Assembly: GCA_040218735.1 (NCBI GenBank)
Contig: JAVJQW010000030.1
Location: 1 to 36,901, forward strand
Source of the DNA: Deltaproteobacteria bacterium
GTDB lineage: Bacteria > Myxococcota > Kuafuiibacteriia > Kuafuiibacteriales > Kuafuiibacteriaceae
Reading direction: 5' to 3'
DNA length: 36,901 nt
Shown: in pieces, positions 13,346 through 23,477 of the stretch
How positions within the stretch are numbered: the first letter of the stretch is position 1
Layout: every line of letters begins with the position of its first letter
The notes under the pieces: generated by a model
The model's input: the letters and a program-made list of their open reading frames with translations, nothing else
What the model was told of the DNA's origin: nothing
Database searches by the model: none
Program-made: the position numbers and the translations under genes

Positions 13346-15220
13346 TCAAGGAAGATGCGACCCGTTGCCGGCCATCACCAGACGTTCGGACCCATCGAGA
13401 CGGTGACCCCACTTTTTGACCAGCGCGCGGAATTTTTTCCGGGACTTCTTCGGTACACCAAAATGGCGTGCGGCGACCTTCTTGGTCGGGTTGAGGTACT
13501 TCCCGTTCTGCTTCAGCCGGAAGTCGAGGTGCGGCCCGGTGGAGCGCCCCGTCGATCCGACGCGCCCGACGAGCGTGCTCTGCGAGACACGCTGGCCGCG
13601 CTTCACGAGGATCCTCGACAGGTGCAGGTAATAGGACTCGTACCCGCCCGGGTGCCGCACCTTCACCATCTTGCCGTTCGGGCCCTTGCGCGCCGCGAAG
13701 GTCACGACCCCGTCGGCGACCGACTGCACCGGCGTCCCGGTCGGGGCCGCGTAGTCCACGCCGCCGTGGAAGTGTTTGCGCCTCGTGATCGGGTGCGTGC
13801 GGTAGCCGAACGCCGAGCTGATCCGTGTGAACGCGAGGGGTGACTTCAGGAAGGCCTTCTTCGCCGCCTTGCCGTTTTCGTCGTAGTACGCGCCGTCGAG
13901 CTCGAAGAGGCGACGCTCGCCGTACTCCGCCGCGAGGATGCGCCCGTAGCCGACCGTCTCACCTTCGACCTCGTCCTTCTCGACGTACAGGCGGAATCGA
14001 TCGCCCTTGCGGGTCTCGGTGTTGAAGTCGATGTCGTAGCGATAGACGTGCGCGAGCTGCATCGCGAGCGCCGCGCCCTCCCCCGCGTCGATGAACGCCT
14101 GGTACAGCGACGAGCCGACCTCGCCCTCGACGAGCGTCACGACGCGCTCGACCTTCACGTCCTTCTTCTCGGCCACGTACCCGTCGCCGTCGGCGCGCAC
14201 CGTCCACGCGTTCAGCGGCGACGTCTCGTAGACGAACCGCGCGAGCTTCCCGTGGGCCGCCGGCTCGACGACGTAGCGATCGCCGACGCGCGTCTTCGTG
14301 AAGTCGACCTTCCCGGTGAGCGTCGCGAGCGCGCGGTCGATCTCGAGGACGGAGACGCCGGCGCGCTCGAGCACGTCGGCGACGCGCTCACCCGAGCGGA
14401 TCTTGCCGGTGATGGGCGCCGGGGGGCCCTGCACCGCGATCGGGACGACGGGGGGCATCGGGCCGACGTGGGCGTTCGCCGTGAGCGGCTCGAGCGTAGG
14501 CGCGGGCGCCGCGTGAACGGGCGTGAACGGGGCGCCGACGAAGGCGTCCGCGGCGAGCGCGGGGCCGGCGGCGAGGGCCGTGGGGGACGAGGACGAATCC
14601 GTGTCCGTGTCCGTGTCCGAATCCGAATCCGAATCCGAGGCCGTGTCCGAATCCGAATCCGAATCCGAGGCCGTGTCCGAATCCGAATCCGAGGCCGTGT
14701 CCGAATCCGAATCCGAGTCCGAACCCGAGCGCGATACCGATGCGGACGCGAGCTGGAGCGAGGCGGAAGCGGATCGAGCGGCGAATGCGGTCCAGGAATC
14801 GGAGCCTGAGGTGGAATCGGACGCGGCTCGAACGGCGATTGCGGACCCGGAATCGGAGCCCGACGCGGACCCGGATCCGGTCACGGACTCGGTAGCGGAT
14901 CCGGATTCGGTAGCGGATCCGGATCCGGATACGGACTCAGTAACGGAATCGGACTCGGTAACGGATCCGGTCACCGACCCGGATCCGGTCACGGACCCGG
15001 CGCCGGCACGAGCCGCTCGCGCCCCCGTCACCGCCGCCACCGAGGCGCCCCGCTCTACTCCGGATCCATCCCCGGCCGCCGCCTCCGCGGTGCCGTGCGG
15101 GCACGGCGTCGGGTCGTCGCGCATCGCCTTGGTCGCGAGCGTCCCCACCAGGATGCCCGCCAGGAACGGCCACCCCCACTTGCGAGGGCGGCGCGACTCG
15201 GGACGATTCACCAACACCAT
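13346..15220 (-). CDS. MepM-like M23 peptidoglycan endopeptidase with N-terminal TM helix and Ser/Asp/Thr-rich repeat stalk
   Basis: TM WGWPFLAGILVGTLA, followed by OapA/LysM-like and Csd3-like segments. M23 motifs ISSAFGYRTHP, HGGVD, YLHL and STGPHLDF. Confidence 0.92.
   Translation of the reverse strand: MVLVNRPESRRPRKWGWPFLAGILVGTLATKAMRDDPTPCPHGTAEAAAGDGSGVERGASVAAVTGARAARAGAGSVTGSGSVTGSVTESDSVTESVSGSGSATESGSATESVTGSGSASGSDSGSAIAVRAASDSTSGSDSWTAFAARSASASLQLASASVSRSGSDSDSDSDTASDSDSDTASDSDSDSDTASDSDSDSDTDTDTDSSSSPTALAAGPALAADAFVGAPFTPVHAAPAPTLEPLTANAHVGPMPPVVPIAVQGPPAPITGKIRSGERVADVLERAGVSVLEIDRALATLTGKVDFTKTRVGDRYVVEPAAHGKLARFVYETSPLNAWTVRADGDGYVAEKKDVKVERVVTLVEGEVGSSLYQAFIDAGEGAALAMQLAHVYRYDIDFNTETRKGDRFRLYVEKDEVEGETVGYGRILAAEYGERRLFELDGAYYDENGKAAKKAFLKSPLAFTRISSAFGYRTHPITRRKHFHGGVDYAAPTGTPVQSVADGVVTFAARKGPNGKMVKVRHPGGYESYYLHLSRILVKRGQRVSQSTLVGRVGSTGRSTGPHLDFRLKQNGKYLNPTKKVAARHFGVPKKSRKKFRALVKKWGHRLDGSERLVMAGNGSHLP
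14595..14726. repeat. In-frame hexamer tandem repeat (22 units; GAATCC/GTGTCC/GAGGCC) encoding a DS/DT/AS dipeptide tract
   Basis: Counted directly. Encodes GSDSDSDSDTASDSDSDTASDSDSDSDTASDSDSDSDTDTDTDS on the minus strand, with 24-30 bp higher-order units. Confidence 0.95.
14843..14998. repeat. Degenerate 6-bp-period tract encoding 52 aa of (x-S/T)n (GSVT/ESVT/GSAT)
   Basis: Recurring GGATCC/GGACTC/GGTCAC units; every second residue is Ser or Thr. Confidence 0.85.
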
Positions 15221-15315
15221 GTCCTACACGCTCTCACCCCTGGATCGACGGCGCAAAAAATCGGCCGGCGAATGCCTTTGACACCCTGGGCCACCCCTGG
15301 CGATTGGGAGCACCG

Positions 15316-16869
15316 ATGCCCAAGCTGATACCGGTCGAGCGCCTCGCCGACGCCCTCGCCTCCGCGGACTACGACGCCCTCGTCGTCGTCGCGCCTGCCC
15401 CCGAGACCGGGGCGCCGGAGGTCGACCGGGTCCTCGCCGCCGCCGCTGCCGCGGACGCGCAGCTCGCGGGGGGCGTGACCCTGCTCGTCGACGACGCGAT
15501 GCCGAAGAGCCGCCTCGTCTTCAGCGGCACCGGACCCGTCACGCGCGACTACGATGACGTCCGCGCCTTCGGCGACGCCGCGAAGAAGGGCGTGCAGCGC
15601 GCGCGCGACGCCGGTGCGCAGGCGCCGCTGCTGTTCGTGACGGGTGTGCCGAAGGCCCCGGGCTTCGAGCGCACGCTGGACGTCGCGCTCCTCGAGGCCG
15701 CCGGCGGACTGTGGGAGCCGCTCGAAGCACGCGAAGCGCTCGGCTCGCTCGAGACGGAGCCCGTGAGCAAGATCGGGTTCGTCGCTCCGAGCGACGGCGC
15801 CCGCACCGCGGCGCTCGTCACGGCGCTCGAAGCGGGTCGCCGCGCCGCACGCGACGTCACCGGCACGGAGCCCGAGCGCATGACCCCCACGCGCGCCGTC
15901 GAGTACGCGATGGACCTGTTCCGCGGGACGAAGGTGAAGGCCTCGCAGGTCGCCGAGCGGGACAAGCTCCAAGCGGGCTACCCGCTCCTCGACGCCGTCG
16001 CGCGGGCCTCGTACCCCGTCGAGCGGCACCGCCCTCGCGTGCTGCGGCTCGAGTACACCGGCGAAGGTGAAGTCACGCGCAGCTACTTCTTCGCGGGCAA
16101 GGGCGTCGTCTACGACACCGGCGGCGCCGACATCAAAGCCGGCGGCCACATGGCCGGCATGAGCCGCGACAAGGGCGGCGCGGGCGCGGTCGTCGGGTTG
16201 TTCGTCGCGGCGTCGAAGCTCCTCCCCAAGGGGGTGAAGCTCGTCGCCGAGATCGGCTTCGTGCGGAACAGCGTCGGCGCCGACGCGTTTGTCTCCGACG
16301 AGATCATCACCAGCCACGCCGGCGTGCGCGTCCGTATCGGCAACACCGACGCCGAGGGTCGCCTCGTCCTCGCCGACCTCCTCTCGCACCTCCGCGAAGA
16401 GGCGCTCACGGCGAAGGCCCCCGCGCTGTTCTCGGTCGCGACGCTCACCGGCCACGCCGGGCGCGCCGTCGGGCCGTACAGCATCGCGGTCGAGAACGGC
16501 CCCGCGCGCCACGACGGGATCGCGCAGTCGCTCTCGTCGGCGGGCGACACCTGGGCCGACCCCTTCGAGATCACGCGCTCGCGCCGTGAAGACTTCGCGT
16601 TCATCCGTCCGCGGTCGCGCGCCGACGACGTCCTCTCCTGCAACAACGCTGCGTCCAGCGTGACCGCACGCGGGCACCAGTTCCCGATGGCGTTCCTCGC
16701 GATCGCGTCGGGCCTCGACAAACACGGACGCGACGGGCACCCGCCCCTCGCCTACGCGCACCTCGACATCGGCGGCAGCGGCGTCGAAGGCGGCGACTGG
16801 CAGCACGGTCGTCCGACGGCGGCGCCGGTCGTCGCGCTCACCGCCGCGCTCGGGTTGATGGGGGTCTGA
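15316..16869 (+). CDS. M17 leucyl aminopeptidase family protein
   Basis: Metal-binding motifs GKGVVYDTGG-x-DIK, MSRDKGGA, NTDAEGRL, ATLTG and HLDI. GGAG SD before ATG 15316. Confidence 0.93.
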   Translation: MPKLIPVERLADALASADYDALVVVAPAPETGAPEVDRVLAAAAAADAQLAGGVTLLVDDAMPKSRLVFSGTGPVTRDYDDVRAFGDAAKKGVQRARDAGAQAPLLFVTGVPKAPGFERTLDVALLEAAGGLWEPLEAREALGSLETEPVSKIGFVAPSDGARTAALVTALEAGRRAARDVTGTEPERMTPTRAVEYAMDLFRGTKVKASQVAERDKLQAGYPLLDAVARASYPVERHRPRVLRLEYTGEGEVTRSYFFAGKGVVYDTGGADIKAGGHMAGMSRDKGGAGAVVGLFVAASKLLPKGVKLVAEIGFVRNSVGADAFVSDEIITSHAGVRVRIGNTDAEGRLVLADLLSHLREEALTAKAPALFSVATLTGHAGRAVGPYSIAVENGPARHDGIAQSLSSAGDTWADPFEITRSRREDFAFIRPRSRADDVLSCNNAASSVTARGHQFPMAFLAIASGLDKHGRDGHPPLAYAHLDIGGSGVEGGDWQHGRPTAAPVVALTAALGLMGV

Positions 16870-16874
16870 TTCGA

Positions 16875-17894
16875 ATGGCACGTCGTCAGGTCGTATTGGT
16901 CACCGGTGCGGGCGGCGAGATGGGGCACGGCCTCATCGAGCGCCTCGCGAAGATGTCGGGCTACGACGTGCTCGCGCTCGACATCAAACGGCTCTCCCCC
17001 GAAGTCGAAGCGCTCTGTCAGGACACCATCGTCGGCGACATCCTCGACACCCGCCTGCTCAACCGGCTGGTGAGTGAGTTCGAGATTCACGCGATCTTCC
17101 ACCTCGCCGCGCTGCTCTCCACGCGCTCGGAGTTCACGCCCGAGACGGCGCACGAAGTGAACGTCCGCGGAACGCTGAACGTCCTCCGGCTCGGCGTCGA
17201 GCAGTCGCGCTGGCACGGCAAACGGGTGAAGTTCCTGTTCCCCAGCTCGATCGCCGCGTTCGGGCTGCCGGACCTCGAGACCAAGGTCCGCTCCGGTCGT
17301 GTCAACGAGGATGCGTTCAACCTCCCCACCACGATGTACGGCTGCAACAAGCTGTACTGCGAGCACCTCGGGCACTACTACGCGCACCACTACCGGCAGC
17401 TCGCGGTGGACGACCGACCGCAGGGCGTCGACTTCCGCTCGATTCGTTTCCCCGGCCTGGTCTCGGCGTTCACGGTGCCGCACGGCGGGACGAGTGACTA
17501 CGGCCCCGAGATGTTGCACGCGGCGGCCCGCGGCGAGCCCTACGCGTGTTTCGTCCGACCCGACACGCAGATCTCGTTCATGGCGATGCCCGACGCGATC
17601 GACGCGCTCCTCGCGTTGATGGAGGCGCCGACCGAGGAGCTGACCCGGCACGTCTACAACATCACGGCGTTCGCACCGACCGCCGAGGACTTCGCGAAGC
17701 TCGTGCTCGAGCACTTCCCGAACGCGGAGATCACGTTCGCGCCCGACGAGCGCCGGCAGCGCATCGTCGACTCCTGGCCGGCGGACGTGGACGACAGCCT
17801 GGCGCGGCGGGACTGGGGCTTTTCGCCCCAGTACGATCTTCAGCGGGCGTTCGCGGAGTACCTGGTGCCCAACATCCGTAAGCGCTACGAATAG
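16875..17894 (+). CDS. Extended SDR, L-threonine 3-dehydrogenase-like
   Basis: TGAGGEMG Rossmann motif, HLAALLS, PSSIAAFG, catalytic YGCNK and GGTSDY (GGTTDY in SDR-type TDH), plus IVDSWP...DDSLARRDWG. Confidence 0.85.
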   Translation: MARRQVVLVTGAGGEMGHGLIERLAKMSGYDVLALDIKRLSPEVEALCQDTIVGDILDTRLLNRLVSEFEIHAIFHLAALLSTRSEFTPETAHEVNVRGTLNVLRLGVEQSRWHGKRVKFLFPSSIAAFGLPDLETKVRSGRVNEDAFNLPTTMYGCNKLYCEHLGHYYAHHYRQLAVDDRPQGVDFRSIRFPGLVSAFTVPHGGTSDYGPEMLHAAARGEPYACFVRPDTQISFMAMPDAIDALLALMEAPTEELTRHVYNITAFAPTAEDFAKLVLEHFPNAEITFAPDERRQRIVDSWPADVDDSLARRDWGFSPQYDLQRAFAEYLVPNIRKRYE

Positions 17895-17898
17895 CGCC

Positions 17899-19107
17899 GT
17901 GAGCGGCACCCTCGTTCTCGTCCTGATCCTGGGCGTGCTCGTCGTGCTCGGTGCGATAGAGTCGGCGAATCACCGCCGGCGATTGCTTCAGATCCCGATC
18001 CGCGTCCACGTCAACGGGACGCGGGGGAAATCGAGCGTCACGCGCCTGATCGCGGCCGCGCTGCGCAACGGCGGCGTTCGGACCTGCGCAAAGACAACCG
18101 GCACGCTCGCGCGGATGATCCTCCCCGACGGTCAGGAGTATCCGATCTTCCGGCCCGCCGGTGCGAACGTGATCGAGCAACTCCGCATCGTCCGGACCGC
18201 GGCGCAGTACCGCGCGGAGGTGCTCGTCATCGAGTGCATGGCGGTGCAACCTACCTTGCAAGCGCTCTGTGAGATGCGTCTGGTCCGCGGCACCCACGGG
18301 GTGCTGACGAACGCCCGCGCGGACCACCTCGACGTGATGGGCCCGTCTGAGGAGGACGTCGCGCTCGCGCTCGTCGCGACGACGCCCGTCGGCGGCACGA
18401 TGTTCACGGCCGAGCAGCGCCACATCGACATCGTGCGCGAGGCCGTCCAAGACCGCGGGGCGAAGCTCGTGCACGTGAAGCGCGAGGAGTTCGACGAGGT
18501 CACGGCGGCCGACCTCGAGCCGTTCTCGTACCTCGAGCACGCGGAGAACGTCGCGCTGGCGTTGAAGGTCTGCGCGGAGCTCGGTGTGGAGCGTCAGGTC
18601 GCGCTCGAGGGCATGTGGAAGGCGGACCCGGATCCGGGCTGCCTGACAGCGGTGGAGATCGAGTTCTTCGGGCGCAACCTCGTCTTCGTGAACGGCTTCG
18701 CGGCGAACGACCCGGAGTCGACGGAGCGCATCTTCCACATGTCGTACAAGCAGTTCCCGGAGCAGTCGCGGCGCATCGCGCTGATCAACTGTCGCGCGGA
18801 CCGGCCGGACCGATCGCGGCAGCTCGGGGAGGCGGTCGTCGGTTGGGGCGGCGTCGACAGCTACGTGTTGATCGGTTCGGGTACGTACATCTTCGCGCGC
18901 GCGGCGATCTCTCGGGGCTTGGACCCGGGGAAGATCAGCTACGCAGAGGACCGACGCGTCGAAGAGGTGTTCGAGCTGCTCGTGGAGCAGTCGGGGCGGT
19001 CCTCGTTGATCATCGGCATGGCGAACATCGGTGGGATGGGGCTGGAGATTGTTCGGTTCTTCAAGAACCGCAGCACGCTGGAGGGAATGAAGAAGGTGGC
19101 GTCGTGA
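17899..19107 (+). CDS. pgsB: Poly-gamma-glutamate synthase PgsB/CapB
   Basis: N-terminal TM, P-loop HVNGTRGKSSVTRL, AKTTGT, ANVIEQ, ECMA, TNARADHLDVMGP, FAANDPEST and NCRADRPDRS. Confidence 0.96.
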   Translation: MSGTLVLVLILGVLVVLGAIESANHRRRLLQIPIRVHVNGTRGKSSVTRLIAAALRNGGVRTCAKTTGTLARMILPDGQEYPIFRPAGANVIEQLRIVRTAAQYRAEVLVIECMAVQPTLQALCEMRLVRGTHGVLTNARADHLDVMGPSEEDVALALVATTPVGGTMFTAEQRHIDIVREAVQDRGAKLVHVKREEFDEVTAADLEPFSYLEHAENVALALKVCAELGVERQVALEGMWKADPDPGCLTAVEIEFFGRNLVFVNGFAANDPESTERIFHMSYKQFPEQSRRIALINCRADRPDRSRQLGEAVVGWGGVDSYVLIGSGTYIFARAAISRGLDPGKISYAEDRRVEEVFELLVEQSGRSSLIIGMANIGGMGLEIVRFFKNRSTLEGMKKVAS

Positions 19108-19556
19108 TCGAAGACCTTCAATTGGCGATCGGCATCGGGCTCGCGGTGAGCCTGATGTTCTCGGAGCTGTTCGGCCTCGCGGCCGGCGGCATGGTGGTGC
19201 CCGGCTATATCGCGCTGGCGCTCGACAACCCGTTCGACGTGGTGGTGACGCTGCTGACGGGCTTTCTGACGTTTGTGATCGTCACGGCGATCGCCAACGT
19301 GGCCATCGTCTACGGGCGGCGCCGCACGGTGTTGATGATCATCGTGGGTTACATCCTCGGGTCGATCGTCCGGTCGATGAACATCGCATCGCCGACCTCC
19401 GAGGACTACACCGTCATCGGCTACATCATCCCGGGCCTCATCGGGATCTGGATCGATCGGCAGGGTCTCATCGAGACGCTGTCGACGCTCCTCACGGCCT
19501 CTGTCGTCGTCCGCCTGATCATGATCCTGATCGCGGGATTGGAGCTGCTGGCATGA
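19104..19556 (+). CDS. pgsC: Poly-gamma-glutamate biosynthesis membrane protein PgsC/CapC
   Basis: GTGA overlap with the pgsB stop; motifs GLAAGGMVVPGYIAL, YGRRR and IGYIIPGLIG; about 150 aa, hydrophobic. Confidence 0.95.
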   Translation: MIEDLQLAIGIGLAVSLMFSELFGLAAGGMVVPGYIALALDNPFDVVVTLLTGFLTFVIVTAIANVAIVYGRRRTVLMIIVGYILGSIVRSMNIASPTSEDYTVIGYIIPGLIGIWIDRQGLIETLSTLLTASVVVRLIMILIAGLELLA

Positions 19557-20695
19557 AGAAGATGTACTGGCGACCGCGGCGCGTCTCGCGGACCGTGCTC
19601 CTCTTGATCAGCATCATGGCCATCGTCGGGTACATCTCGATCGGCCTGCTGAAGACCGACGTCCGCCAGCCGTACTACGAGCAGAAGCTCGCGGCGGCGC
19701 GCGTCGCGGAGAAGGCGTTCAAAGCGATCCGCACGGAGCGGCTGAAGCGCGGCCTGAAGATCGACGTCGAGAGCGACCCGGCCCAGACCGGGATCATCGG
19801 CGCGCTGATGACGGTCTCGACGACGAACCAGGGGAGCCTGTCGTCGAAGCAGACCTCCGTGAACCCGAACTTCGCGGCGGTGATCGTGCACCTGCTGCGG
19901 AAGGCCGGCGTGCGCCCGGACGACGCGGTGGCGGTCGGTTACTCCGGCTCGTTCCCCGCGGTGAACGTGAACGTGTTGGCGGCGCTCGAGGTGATGAAGG
20001 TGAAGCCGGTCATCGTGGCGAGCGCGGGTGCTTCGCAGTGGGGCGCCAACGAACCGGAGTTCTTGTGGCTCGACATGGAGAAGGTCCTCCTGCAGCAGGG
20101 GATCATCTCCGAGGGCTCGAAGGCGGTCTCGATCGGCGGCATCGAGGACAAGGCGCTCGGCATGAACAAACGCGGGCGCGCGATCCTGCAGAAGTCGATC
20201 GACGACTCCGGCATCTACCAGATCGTCGCCGACGACTTCGCCGACAGCGTCGAGAAGCGCATGAAGTTCTACCGAGAGCAGGCCGGCGGCGCGAAGATCA
20301 CGGCGTACATCAACGTCGGCGGCGGCACGATCAGCGTCGGCAAGAAGGTCGGCAAGCGCCTCTTCAAACCGGGCCTCAACCGCCGCGCCCCGGGGCCGGT
20401 GGTGATCGACTCCGTGATGGCGCGCTTCGTGGACACGGGCGTCCCGGTGGTCCACCTCGTGAAGATCGTCGACCTCGCGGACCGCTACGGCCTCGAGGTA
20501 TCGCCGATCATCACCCCGGCCGTCGGCCGCGGAAACGTCTTCGTCCGCGTCGACTTCAACCGCTGGCTCGTCGCGGGCTTGCTGATCGCCATCCTCGCGA
20601 GCCTGTACCTGTTCGTGCGGAGCGACATCGGGTTCAGGATGCTACAGCGCCCGAAGAAGGGCGGCGACGGCGGTCATCCGGAGCCGATGGTGTAG
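19553..20695 (+). CDS. pgsW: Poly-gamma-glutamate system protein PgsW
   Basis: ATGA overlap with pgsC. N- and C-terminal TM helices; motifs DPAQTGIIG, TTNQGSLSSKQTSVNPNFAA, SGSFPAVN, GASQWGAN and INVGG, typical of the protein following pgsBC in non-Bacillus systems. Confidence 0.88.
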   Translation: MKKMYWRPRRVSRTVLLLISIMAIVGYISIGLLKTDVRQPYYEQKLAAARVAEKAFKAIRTERLKRGLKIDVESDPAQTGIIGALMTVSTTNQGSLSSKQTSVNPNFAAVIVHLLRKAGVRPDDAVAVGYSGSFPAVNVNVLAALEVMKVKPVIVASAGASQWGANEPEFLWLDMEKVLLQQGIISEGSKAVSIGGIEDKALGMNKRGRAILQKSIDDSGIYQIVADDFADSVEKRMKFYREQAGGAKITAYINVGGGTISVGKKVGKRLFKPGLNRRAPGPVVIDSVMARFVDTGVPVVHLVKIVDLADRYGLEVSPIITPAVGRGNVFVRVDFNRWLVAGLLIAILASLYLFVRSDIGFRMLQRPKKGGDGGHPEPMV

Positions 20696-20726
20696 CCCAG
20701 CCGACGCTGACGAAGTCAGCGGCCGG

Positions 20727-21719
20727 CTACGGCAAAGCCCTCCCGATCGCCCGCACCACCCTCCTATACTTCCGCCGCACCGCTTTGCTCTGCTCCACGT
20801 GGAAGAAGCGATCACTCGACGCCGTCGCGGTCCCCACGCACGACTCGCTCAGCCCGTTTGTGTAGCGCCCCTGGATGTTCGTCGTGCCGCACAGGTGCGC
20901 GCTGACCGCGGCGCCCGGGGCTTCGTTGCAGGCGGTGACGAGGTCGAGCTCGAAGGCGTCTTCGAGGGCGAAGAGCAGGCGCGCGACGCGGGAGGTGGAG
21001 CTCGTCGCGATCGTGGTGCCGTCGGAGAGGCTGATGCCGTCGTCGCCCATGCCGTGCAGGCTGATGATCGCGGCCTCGCGGAAGGCGTCGGAGAGGACGC
21101 GGTGGGCGGCGTGGAACATCGCGCGCTCGCTGTGCGCGACGTCGGACTCGCGGTAGCGCTCCAGACGCTCGCTGCACACGCGCGTGAAGCCTTCGCACAG
21201 CGTGAAGCCGGCGTTGGCGCAACGGTGCGTGCCCGAGGCGATCAGCGCCCGCGCCTTCAGCGCGCCGTAGGCGTAGCGGCCCTGGCGCAACGTCCCGCTG
21301 TCGTAGATCGGGTGGGGCACCTCGAAGATCAGCGGCCGGGCGTTGTCCACGCGCAGCGCGACGATCGCCCAGCCGCTCCCCGCGATCGCGGGACGCCACA
21401 ACAACGTGTCCTCGTTCGGGCGCGCGCACAGCAGGTACCCCGCCTCGAACGCCCTGCCCCACGCGTCGCGGTCGCCCGCGACGGCGGCGCGGAGCGAGCG
21501 CTCGAAGGCGTCGAGCTGGTCGTCCGTCGGTGCCGCGTAGCGATCGGAGTCACCGCCCGGCGGGAAGATCGTGTTGCGATCGAACGCGCTCGCGACGGGC
21601 ACCTCACAGCGCGGCAGCGACTTCAGGAGCCGACACGGACCCGTGCACGGCGCCGCCTCGACCGACGACGACCACAACGCGATCGATGCCGCGAACAACC
21701 CGAGGGACGAACGGTCCAA
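20727..21719 (-). CDS. Secreted hypothetical protein; candidate Zn-dependent hydrolase (PghP/N-formylglutamate amidohydrolase-like motif order)
   Basis: Signal peptide ending VEA-A and many Cys. Motifs EVPHPIYDSGT, SDVAH, ISLHG, LCGTTNIQG and FHVEQS-x3-R. The gene is well supported; the function is inference. Confidence 0.65.
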   Translation of the reverse strand: MDRSSLGLFAASIALWSSSVEAAPCTGPCRLLKSLPRCEVPVASAFDRNTIFPPGGDSDRYAAPTDDQLDAFERSLRAAVAGDRDAWGRAFEAGYLLCARPNEDTLLWRPAIAGSGWAIVALRVDNARPLIFEVPHPIYDSGTLRQGRYAYGALKARALIASGTHRCANAGFTLCEGFTRVCSERLERYRESDVAHSERAMFHAAHRVLSDAFREAAIISLHGMGDDGISLSDGTTIATSSTSRVARLLFALEDAFELDLVTACNEAPGAAVSAHLCGTTNIQGRYTNGLSESCVGTATASSDRFFHVEQSKAVRRKYRRVVRAIGRALP

Positions 21720-21780
21720 CCGAAAAGTGATCCTACCCGACGCGCAGCGCCGTCCAAGCCAAAGTGACCGCGCCCGCGTT

Positions 21781-22722
21781 TCAGTTCGCGCGAACCCGCC
21801 GAAGGTTGGCGCGCACGTGGTCCGCGGACGCCGACAGGGGCCCGTAACCCTCCAGCTTCAAGCTCGCCGCCGACGCCGCGAACCCCGCCGCCTCGACCGG
21901 CGTCATGCCCTGCCCTCGCCCGAACGCGTAGGAAGCAACGAACGTATCCCCGCACCCCGTCGCGTCCACGTGCTCGCGCGGCGGGACGGGCGGAATGGGC
22001 GCGACCGTCTCGTCGTGACACACGAGCGCGCCACGATCCGCGAACGTCACCAGCACCTCCGCGACCCCGTGCGCGGCGAGCGCCCGCGCCGCGCTCCGGG
22101 GATCCGCATCACCGACGAGCATCGAAGCCTCGGCGTCGTCGACCTTCAGCGCGGTCACGCCCGACAGCCGCGCCGCGACGTCACGCATGCGCGCCGGCAC
22201 CACGCGCTGATCGTCGACCCGGCGCAAGTCACCCTGCGCGTCGAACGAGACCCGCGCGCCCTTGTCGACCACCGCGCGCAGCACGTCGGTCGGCAGCTCG
22301 TCCGCGGTGAGCGGGCCAAGGTGGAACGCGTCCGCCGACAGCGCCTCGACGTGCGCGACCGCGAACGGATCCGCGATCCCGGTCACCGACTGGATCCGCC
22401 GCGCCAGCGCCTCGTCTTCGTACCGATTCTCGAACGCGGTCGTCGCCGCGCAGGCGTGATTCACGAGGCGAACCCCGCGCGGCTCGAGCTGTTTTCGTAG
22501 CCGCTCAGCGTCGCCTTCGGCCATCCGTGTGACGATTCCTGCACGCCACCCGAGCGCCGCCCACGCGAGCGCCACATAGTACGCGCTGCCCCCGAACTGC
22601 TCTTTTATCGGGCGGTTGGGGGCCACGATCCGGTCGAGCGTCACGTGGCCGACCGCCCACGCATCCGGTTCGAGCTTGGCAGACGACACCCTGACGGCGA
22701 TCGTAGGCACGTGCGCCGTCAA
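21781..22722 (-). CDS. PfkB/ribokinase family carbohydrate kinase
   Basis: VGHVTLD, GGSAYY, FDAQG, LKVDDAEA and the anion-hole motif VDATGCGDTF. Start uncertain. Confidence 0.9.
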   Translation of the reverse strand: MTAHVPTIAVRVSSAKLEPDAWAVGHVTLDRIVAPNRPIKEQFGGSAYYVALAWAALGWRAGIVTRMAEGDAERLRKQLEPRGVRLVNHACAATTAFENRYEDEALARRIQSVTGIADPFAVAHVEALSADAFHLGPLTADELPTDVLRAVVDKGARVSFDAQGDLRRVDDQRVVPARMRDVAARLSGVTALKVDDAEASMLVGDADPRSAARALAAHGVAEVLVTFADRGALVCHDETVAPIPPVPPREHVDATGCGDTFVASYAFGRGQGMTPVEAAGFAASAASLKLEGYGPLSASADHVRANLRRVRAN

Positions 22723-22734
22723 CGCGCTACCGGG

Positions 22735-22752
22735 TCGTCACGACAGCGTCAC
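22735..22752 (+). promoter_or_regulatory. Pho-box-like direct repeat in the pfkB/phoB divergent intergenic region
   Basis: TCGTCACGACAGCGTCAC, with CGTCAC repeated at exact 11-bp spacing, 26 bp upstream of phoB. PhoB-type regulators bind 11-bp direct repeats and commonly autoregulate. Confidence 0.6.
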
Positions 22753-22778
22753 ACGGTGCGAGCAAGAAGGACGCAGAT

Positions 22779-23477
<699 letters not shown>

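Follow-up and report, generated by a model that had tools for sequence, protein, structure and literature searches.

A gene that runs head-on into a set of poly-γ-glutamate (PGA) synthesis genes raises the question of whether its product acts on the polymer that the neighbouring synthase would make. This arrangement occurs in contig JAVJQW010000030.1 of a Deltaproteobacteria bacterium of the phylum Myxococcota (assembly GCA_040218735.1), whose whole stretch of 36,901 nucleotides was analysed and is referred to as the window. At positions 20727-21719 an open reading frame (ORF) on the reverse strand, here called the target gene, faces a pgsB-pgsC-TIGR04332 cassette. A preliminary description of this DNA had proposed that the target gene encodes a secreted PGA hydrolase of a new family, remotely related to the phage enzyme PghP and with an Asp in place of a zinc-binding Glu. 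In that proposal the enzyme releases or trims the polymer in place of CapD or PgdS and completes a synthase-plus-hydrolase system. The features of the gene and its product on which the argument leans are the following:

20727-21719, reverse strand: coding sequence of the predicted exported PghP-like hydrolase, 330 amino acids, TTG start (ORF list, relatives, fold and hhalign)
21654-21719, reverse strand: predicted signal peptide, residues 1-22 (translation and hydropathy, with probable cleavage after V-E-A)
21291-21320, reverse strand: motif VPHPIYDSGT, residues 134-143, with H136 and D140 as putative first two zinc ligands (translation, conservation and alignment)
21132-21146, reverse strand: motif SDVAH, residues 192-196, with H196 as candidate equivalent of PghP His78 (conservation and a low-confidence hhalign pairing)
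21051-21065, reverse strand: motif ISLHG, residues 219-223, with H222 as putative third zinc ligand (conservation and alignment)
20775-20801, reverse strand: motif HVEQSKAVR, residues 307-315, with E309 as putative catalytic base and R315 as putative anchor of a substrate carboxylate (conservation and alignment)

Translation of the target gene bore out what had been said of its product, since a predicted signal peptide and all the quoted motifs were present, LCGTTNI at residues 276-282 among them. The N-terminus, judged by eye and from hydropathy on the translation, combines a charged start, a hydrophobic core (11-residue Kyte-Doolittle mean up to 2.0) and the sequence V-E-A before residue 23, which would suit export through a Sec-type signal peptide. 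The protein has ten Cys (residues 25, 29, 38, 98, 167, 175, 182, 264, 277 and 294) and is probably stabilised by disulfides.

The target protein, which itself gave no Pfam or NCBIfam match, belongs to a large family for which neither collection holds a model. A word-indexed search retrieved 106 relatives, none of them with a family annotation over the hydrolase domain, and an exhaustive HMMER search of 1.84 billion representatives returned 1277 clusters (50% identity) at E ≤ 1e-3 and 798 at E ≤ 1e-10. Conservation was counted in an alignment of 40 relatives that are 24-83% identical to the target. H136, R315, S192 and D193 occur in all 40, and residue 140 is always acidic (28 Asp, 12 Glu). H196, H222, G223 and E309 are each kept in 38; P135 is invariant, Q310 near-invariant and T143 present in 37, and six of the Cys of the target are retained in 38-40 of the sequences. 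Conservation at this level in the relatives indicates that the quoted motifs are not a chance resemblance. Two relatives (P0067 and P0068) lack H196, H222, H307 and E309 together while retaining H136, the acid at 140 and R315; they are likely inactive derivatives, and a joint loss of this kind is the pattern expected if the residues cooperate. Many relatives begin with a hydrophobic stretch followed by a Cys, resembling a lipoprotein signal. The hydrolase domain was also seen at the end of, or repeated in, giant proteins (P0207, 4292 amino acids; P0205, 1777 amino acids), and P0176 (1359 amino acids) and P0227 (1295 amino acids) contain two and three hydrolase-matched stretches, respectively.

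We then compared the family with PF05908 (Gamma_PGA_hydro), the family of PghP and its relative PghL. The PF05908 profile recognised the positive control, ORF34 of phage PM1 (annotated as PghP-like), with 195 bits and found no match at E ≤ 10 in the whole target genome, which contains no PF05908 gene. The Pfam profiles FGase, Peptidase_M14 and AstE_AspA matched neither the target nor any of the 40 relatives. An hhalign comparison of the family with the single PM1 sequence covered 13 columns around the first His (E 0.16) and was dropped; because this alignment was too short, an alignment of PF05908 was made instead from PM1 ORF34 (135 relatives collected, 38 aligned). Against these 38 sequences the family aligned over its C-terminal half with an E-value of 2e-4, and a query cut down to residues 100-330 scored 37.7 over 158 columns, spanning PF05908 positions 14-200. 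These values were obtained in local mode, the global mode being weak (score 17.3). None of 100 column shuffles of the PF05908 alignment reached 37.7 (mean 13.2, standard deviation 2.5, maximum 22.3), and the reversed profile scored 11.0. The TIGR04332 family was also tried as a relative of the hydrolases and rejected as unrelated, with hhalign scores of 15.7 against the hydrolase family and 13.2 against PF05908.

A single co-linear alignment paired the functional residues much as had been proposed, namely a His, an Asp for Glu, a second His and a late Glu. In PM1 numbering, H136 corresponds to H38, D140 to E43, G142-T143 to G45-T46 and H222 to H100 of the invariant H100-G101 pair; in the C-terminal part E309 corresponds to E161, S311 to S163 and R315 to R167. 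The same PM1 residues can be carried over to PghL, in which H38 and E43 become H41 and E46, H100 becomes H102, E161 becomes E165 and R167 becomes R171. According to the PghL paper, H41, E46 and H102 are the zinc ligands of that enzyme, Glu165 is catalytic and Arg171 anchors a substrate carboxylate; His77 is also among the residues named, and alanine changes of PghP H40, E45, H78, H103 and E165 damage activity (PMC6506827). By this comparison H136, D140 and H222 would form a zinc triad equivalent to PghL H41/E46/H102. For H196 the partner was the His in the LHITST motif of PF05908, where the alignment is of low confidence, and an alternative sub-alignment puts this motif elsewhere. One equation of motifs did not survive, since LCG-x2-NI had been likened to the LxG...NI of PghP and the alignment pairs a QGR-x2-N segment instead. 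The cluster of the ESM Atlas nearest to the target among those that bear a name is PF05908 (0.82), which we treat as a lead only.

In agreement with the profile alignment, structure prediction placed the target among enzymes of the same kind. The AlphaFold2 model, computed on the alignment of relatives, has a mean predicted local distance difference test score (pLDDT) of 94.6 and a predicted template modelling score of 0.90; its only low part is the signal peptide (residues 1-20, pLDDT 54-63). An extra N-terminal sub-domain, at about residues 28-125, has no counterpart in PghP. Comparison of the model with PghP and N-formylglutamate amidohydrolase (FGase), a check that the preliminary description had suggested, returned PghL and PghP among the best matches. 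Foldseek ranked 5onj, PghL with bound poly-γ-glutamate, first in the PDB (E 1.8e-4, template modelling (TM) score 0.54 on the target), followed by FGase 2q7s at a nearly equal E-value. PghP 3a9l and the phage PM1 enzyme 21dc stood at ranks 7 and 11, the three PGA hydrolases having TM scores of 0.52-0.55 on the target. DapE, M14 carboxypeptidases, desuccinylases and aspartoacylase were also listed, and among the viral models of BFVD a Bacillus-phage carboxypeptidase and a PGA hydrolase fell within the first four matches. The modelled protein is of a carboxypeptidase-A-like fold. Taken together, fold and homology make it very probable that the target family consists of new, very distant relatives of PghP and PghL, which upholds the earlier idea of a remote PghP-type family.

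Because the proposed role depends on the neighbouring genes, we examined how regularly the family is encoded beside PGA synthase genes. The cassette in the window comprises the neighbours that had been claimed:

17899-19107, forward strand: pgsB, poly-gamma-glutamate synthase ligase subunit (TIGR04012, 466.3 bits, cut-off 222.7)
19104-19556, forward strand: pgsC, membrane subunit (PF14102, 107 bits; TIGR04011, 133.5 bits)
19553-20695, forward strand: TIGR04332 'poly-gamma-glutamate system protein' gene, named pgsW in the preliminary description (315.9 bits, cut-off 100)

The candidate GTG start of pgsC overlaps the pgsB stop. The TIGR04332 product has no Pfam match, and the name pgsW was returned for its gene by no search; a literature search gave, among the matches listed, nothing on the TIGR04332 protein and only unrelated uses of 'pgsW', and found no paper pairing pgsB with myxobacteria. 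The target genome carries one pgsB, one CapC gene and two members of the hydrolase family, the second on another contig (G000:C61:472927-473832, 312 bits, Glu at position 140). This second copy is not near any CapC gene, and its closest relative is the second copy in a metagenome-assembled genome (MAG) of the same genus. The genome also holds four gamma-glutamyltranspeptidase (GGT)-family genes, all on other contigs, and the suggestion that the target stands in for CapD is not supported.

Starting from the family, we surveyed 47 loci on contigs, one genome per species, that encode a relative. A tblastn search of these loci with the Pgs proteins of the window found the cassette in two. The same-genus MAG (L001) shows the same convergent layout of hydrolase gene and cassette, and at a locus from another genus (G157) the hydrolase-family gene is divergent and lies about 1.6 kb upstream of pgsB. 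At this other-genus locus (L111:2519-5761) the hydrolase-family gene is followed on the same strand by two genes, one for a Peptidase_C39_2 protein and one for an ATP-grasp ligase of the RimK-like type that carries an RLAN domain; this ligase may represent a second glutamate-ligase-type system there, and we counted it in favour of a polyglutamate substrate. When the neighbours at all 47 loci were clustered, none was shared beyond one myxobacterial clade.

Starting from the cassette, we found TIGR04332 in 33 of 401 sampled genomes of the phylum and fetched about 9 kb on each side (shorter at contig ends) around 31 of the 32 loci other than our own. A canonical cassette with a family member nearby was seen in three of the 33 genomes, namely our own, the one of the same genus and one from another genus, and the cassette flanks were otherwise unrelated between lineages. 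Since the family member is rare at the cassette and the flanks are unrelated, the canonical three-gene cassette does not normally include the family, and the claim that it completes a synthase-plus-hydrolase system cannot be generalised to that cassette. In 16 of the 31 other loci (e.g. L108:8267-8869) the TIGR04332 gene faces a conserved convergent gene of about 200 codons. This gene was considered as a hydrolase and rejected, since Pfam gave no match and the product ends in a low-complexity tail. The N-terminal part of the product, about 100 amino acids long, is conserved, the middle is rich in Pro and Ala, and the acidic C-terminal tail is conserved too.

A far closer association emerged with a second kind of CapC gene. 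The phylum sample contained 55 genomes with the hydrolase family and 71 with CapC; 33 of the latter have the canonical cassette (one of them also the double form) and 38 the double form only. In Pyxidicoccus and Myxococcus a hydrolase-family gene stands directly before the gene for a 1074-aa protein with two CapC domains (PF14102, 146 bits). This double-CapC gene occurs in 39 of the 401 genomes, and in 37 of these a hydrolase-family member lies within about 6 kb on the same contig, as determined by comparing by hand the coordinates from the family and CapC searches. The member is directly upstream of the double-CapC gene in 32 of the 37 genomes, and the remaining five have the divergent copy only, at 4-5 kb. 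In the two exceptions the family lies on another contig or CapC lies at a contig end. The double-CapC region of G014 (L071) gave no family match. One of the double-CapC genomes is unpublished (G018, identical with G240), and the divergent double-CapC genes, missed by tblastn with the pgsC of the window, were recovered by hidden Markov model (HMM) searches. The family is thus a near-constant part of a non-canonical CapC/PgsB-like cluster, and co-occurrence with pgsBC-type genes is weak at the canonical cassette and close at the double-CapC cluster.

In Pyxidicoccus fallax (L067; G019:C166:11000-30900) this cluster is large and lies on one strand, and the same layout was seen at three further loci (L068, L069 and L070). 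It encodes, in order, a DcaP-like outer-membrane protein, family copy 1, the 1074-aa double-CapC protein, an 877-aa protein and the divergent family copy 2. Two large proteins follow, one of 1676 aa and then one of at least 1605 aa; the latter contains a PgsB-like domain, which scored 205.8 bits with TIGR04012, just under the cut-off of 222.7. The cluster has no TIGR04332 gene. Copy 1 and copy 2 score about 250-270 and 70-85 bits, respectively, with the family profile, and both of these free-standing copies keep H136, D140, H196, H222, E309 and R315. The double-CapC protein contains family-like segments as well, but these are without the catalytic residues.

Over the whole phylum sample, 40 of the 55 family-bearing genomes encode a member beside a CapC-type gene. 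Across phyla, CapC was present in 12 of 46 family-bearing genomes, and in 10 of those 12 it was adjacent to the family gene. In a maximum-likelihood tree of 51 members, CapC-linked genes fell in at least three separate places. The target and its same-genus relative belong to a supported 15-member group together with the other-genus gene and 12 unlinked genes; the other two places are the copy-1 clade and a very divergent copy-2 clade, so that the target lies in another clade than the cluster copies. For comparison, a 2015 survey reports that PghP-like genes outside Bacillales accompany pgsB in only 13% of cases (PMC4497714).

What, then, might the target protein do? We regard the chances as about even that it is an exported, PghP-related zinc amidohydrolase acting on the polyglutamate of the adjacent synthase. 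The data show its fold class, its remote homology to PF05908, how well the aligned catalytic residues are conserved and which genes surround the family; from these we infer metal binding, export, disulfides, substrate and physiological role. By analogy with PghL, H136, D140 and H222 would hold zinc, E309 would serve as general base or as nucleophile, and H196 and R315 would bind carboxylates of an acidic substrate. A gamma-glutamyl polymer made by the adjacent PgsB-PgsC-TIGR04332 synthase is the most likely candidate for this substrate because of where the relatives of the target are encoded. Cutting would take place in the periplasm or outside the cell and could serve to shorten the chains, set the polymer free or remove polymer that has stalled, much as BcsZ, AlgL and PslG do for exopolysaccharides and PgdS for the PGA of Bacillus.

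Several observations weigh against this assignment. On the side of homology, PF05908 did not match the target at E ≤ 0.1, neither PF05908 nor any Pfam peptidase family matched any of the 40 aligned relatives at E ≤ 1, and a profile search of PDB sequences gave a chance match only (Csx28, E 0.41). The acid is one residue nearer to the first His than in PghP (H-x3 instead of H-x4) and is an Asp instead of a Glu. The Foldseek matches are weak, with E-values of about 1e-4, and PghL is not set apart in them from FGase, DapE and M14 enzymes; because these score alike, the fold alone does not single out the PghP family. In addition, PghP Thr80 and Ser81, which are needed for activity (PMC6506827), have no conserved counterpart in the 40-relative alignment, as the positions after H196 are variable. 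On the genomic side, one of the 31 other cassette loci has a family member within about 9 kb and 30 do not; two genomes of the same taxonomic family carry the cassette and the family gene 154 and 330 kb apart, and G011 and G014 carry pgsBC and a family member that are not within 8-9 kb of each other. Across phyla, CapC is absent from 34 of the 46 genomes with the family, and the surroundings of the family gene in three gammaproteobacteria were uninformative. Finally, most double-CapC genomes come from one taxonomic family (f9), so that the counts do not represent independent events.

Much of this would be accounted for by the main rival, in which the protein is an exported zinc amidase that shares this fold but cuts a different acidic peptide, for instance the gamma-D-Glu-meso-diaminopimelate bond or other parts of peptidoglycan stem peptides, in cell-wall turnover or predation, the pgsBC neighbourhood being accidental in this lineage. 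The M14 enzymes MpaA and ENP1 act on peptidoglycan stem peptides. A family far wider than PGA synthesis, its absence from nearly all other canonical loci and the lack of the Thr/Ser motif specific to PGA enzymes would all fit such an activity. So would the many hosts from predatory groups (Myxococcota and Bradymonadia) and the fusion of a few relatives to GH16/SKN1, Big_9, dockerin, cadherin-like or '3D' domains, which are typical of exported wall- or polymer-degrading proteins. We nevertheless consider this rival rather unlikely, since a CapC-adjacent member in 40 of 55 genomes, from at least three clades and in three arrangements, is hard to ascribe to chance in genomes of 5-13 Mb, the closest solved fold is that of PghL with PGA bound, and the Arg that would anchor the PGA carboxylate is invariant. 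A protein that has nothing to do with the polymer, either an amidohydrolase for small molecules (of the FGase or succinylglutamate desuccinylase type) or a binding protein without catalysis, would explain why FGase came second to PghL at almost the same E-value and why desuccinylases and aspartoacylase were listed as well. FGase- and desuccinylase-type enzymes are cytosolic, whereas the target has a signal peptide and six near-invariant Cys; the profile alignment extends over almost the full length of PF05908, the target matched neither FGase nor AstE in Pfam, and the conservation of the catalytic residues makes a pure binding role unlikely. This explanation therefore appears very improbable. 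The least credible of the alternatives is an enzyme that attaches the polymer, joining polyglutamate to an envelope component in a CapD-like role with a different fold. The position of the gene beside the synthase and the additional N-terminal sub-domain speak for it, and for this fold a possible acyl-enzyme (anhydride) route, considered in the PghL paper, could in principle allow transfer; the characterised PF05908 members described in the same paper are, however, all endo-hydrolases (PMC6506827). The CapD role could moreover be filled by the four GGT-family genes of the genome, and to our knowledge no enzyme of carboxypeptidase-like fold carries out transpeptidation. All in all, the earlier interpretation stands as regards remote homology and the residues of the putative active site, whereas the LCG pairing is not what the alignment gives, the link with the canonical cassette is weak and the replacement of CapD is not supported.

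A wider proposal can also be made, which we put forward only tentatively and hold to be doubtful. The family would comprise dedicated periplasmic or extracellular depolymerases of polyglutamate-type synthases in two-membrane bacteria, and the Myxococcaceae cluster would make and export an undescribed poly-amino-acid exopolymer. In this cluster, which holds two intact hydrolase copies, inactive ones joined to a double PgsC, a very large PgsB-like ligase and a channel in the outer membrane, the hydrolases would belong to the synthesis machinery itself and process its product, the part that BcsZ and AlgL play in polysaccharide systems. The PGA-cutting enzymes described in the PghL paper are of three kinds, CapD/GGT, PgdS and PghP (PMC6506827). 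The last of these, PghP, is known as a small protein of phages or prophages. To it the present data add a large, predicted exported, chromosomal sister family, with at least 1277 clusters and no family model, whose genes neighbour PgsC-type genes in many myxobacteria. Were the proposed activity correct, the family would offer a candidate enzyme for polymer processing in the little-studied polyglutamate systems of Gram-negative bacteria, open a way into an uncharacterised gene cluster that is widespread in Myxococcus, and provide new enzymes for the controlled degradation of polyglutamate capsules and materials.

The immediate surroundings of the target gene contain two further features:

20696-20726, no strand: convergent intergenic spacer with hairpin, 31 bp (sequence and fold)
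21781-22722, reverse strand: PfkB-family sugar kinase gene (PF00294, 84 bits), 61 bp upstream of the hydrolase gene and on the same strand

The target stop codon occupies 20727-20729 and the last base of the TIGR04332 stop codon is 20695 (ORF list and sequence), which leaves exactly the 31 bp between the converging genes that had been reported. The 55 nucleotides around the spacer (20686-20740) have a predicted folding energy of -27.9 kcal/mol, a strong hairpin, which is probably a terminator shared by the TIGR04332 gene and the hydrolase gene. A promoter and terminator scan of 20400-23000 found no site; at the spacer the consensus terminator scan was empty because the hairpin lacks a T-run. 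Contigs from three metagenome runs, otherwise 90-100% identical to the locus, all stop at the hairpin (20696-20735), probably as an assembly break at the inverted repeat. In one metatranscriptome run three small contigs fell within the target gene (21004-21600, depth 2.8-3.0); as DNA is possible in such libraries and assembled contigs do not demonstrate transcription, they were not used as evidence of it. Judging by the spacing, the PfkB kinase gene is possibly co-transcribed with the hydrolase gene; it is also a neighbour at the same-genus locus L001 and at none of the 31 other pgsBC loci. On the other side of the cassette, an M17 leucyl-aminopeptidase gene (15304-16869) and a gene of the short-chain dehydrogenase/reductase (SDR)/epimerase family (16875-17894) are followed by pgsB, the two intervals being 5 and 4 bp, an operon-like spacing. 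Both are kept at the same-genus locus, the SDR gene also occurs at L126, and neither was seen at the other 30 loci. Further upstream, on the reverse strand (13346-15220), lies a gene for an M23 peptidase with a Csd3-like domain, whose N-terminal half includes a long low-complexity stretch rich in Ser, Asp, Thr and Gly (SDSDSDT-like runs).

Among known systems, the target most resembles PghP and PghL (YndL; PF05908, MEROPS M86; structures 3a9l, 5onj and 21dc). It shares with them the predicted fold, the co-linear profile alignment, the putative His/acid/His triad, the late Glu, and a Ser-x3-Arg with the anchoring Arg; H196 is a candidate for the second-shell His, and both families are encoded near PGA synthase genes in some genomes. 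It differs in its length of 330 amino acids, against about 200 for PghP and PghL, which includes the N-terminal sub-domain and a Cys-rich insert at about residues 162-195; in its predicted signal peptide and conserved Cys; in an Asp (Glu in 12 of the 40 relatives) that lies one residue closer to the His; and in being chromosomal, unlike the phage-borne PghP, with no PF05908 HMM match and no counterpart of Thr80/Ser81. FGase 2q7s, M14 carboxypeptidases and succinylglutamate desuccinylases resemble the target in their alpha/beta fold and in a His-acid-His site with a distal Glu. They have no sequence-family match to it, have Foldseek E-values similar to or weaker than that of PghL, and act on chain ends or small molecules; the M14 motif is H-x2-E, compared with H-x3-D in the target. 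PghL itself has been compared with carboxypeptidase A (PMC6506827). PgdS and CapD, which are encoded with the pgs/cap operons of Bacillus, share with the target its proposed role in synthase-adjacent processing of the polymer (for their roles, see PMC6506827), whereas their folds and chemistry are unrelated, PgdS being a Cys peptidase of the NlpC/P60 type and CapD an Ntn-hydrolase of the gamma-glutamyltranspeptidase family, and neither family matched the target. The Myxococcaceae double-CapC cluster resembles the target locus in that it encodes two intact members of the same hydrolase family, and differs from it in its double-CapC protein, giant PgsB-like protein and DcaP-like outer-membrane protein in a setting that has no TIGR04332 gene.

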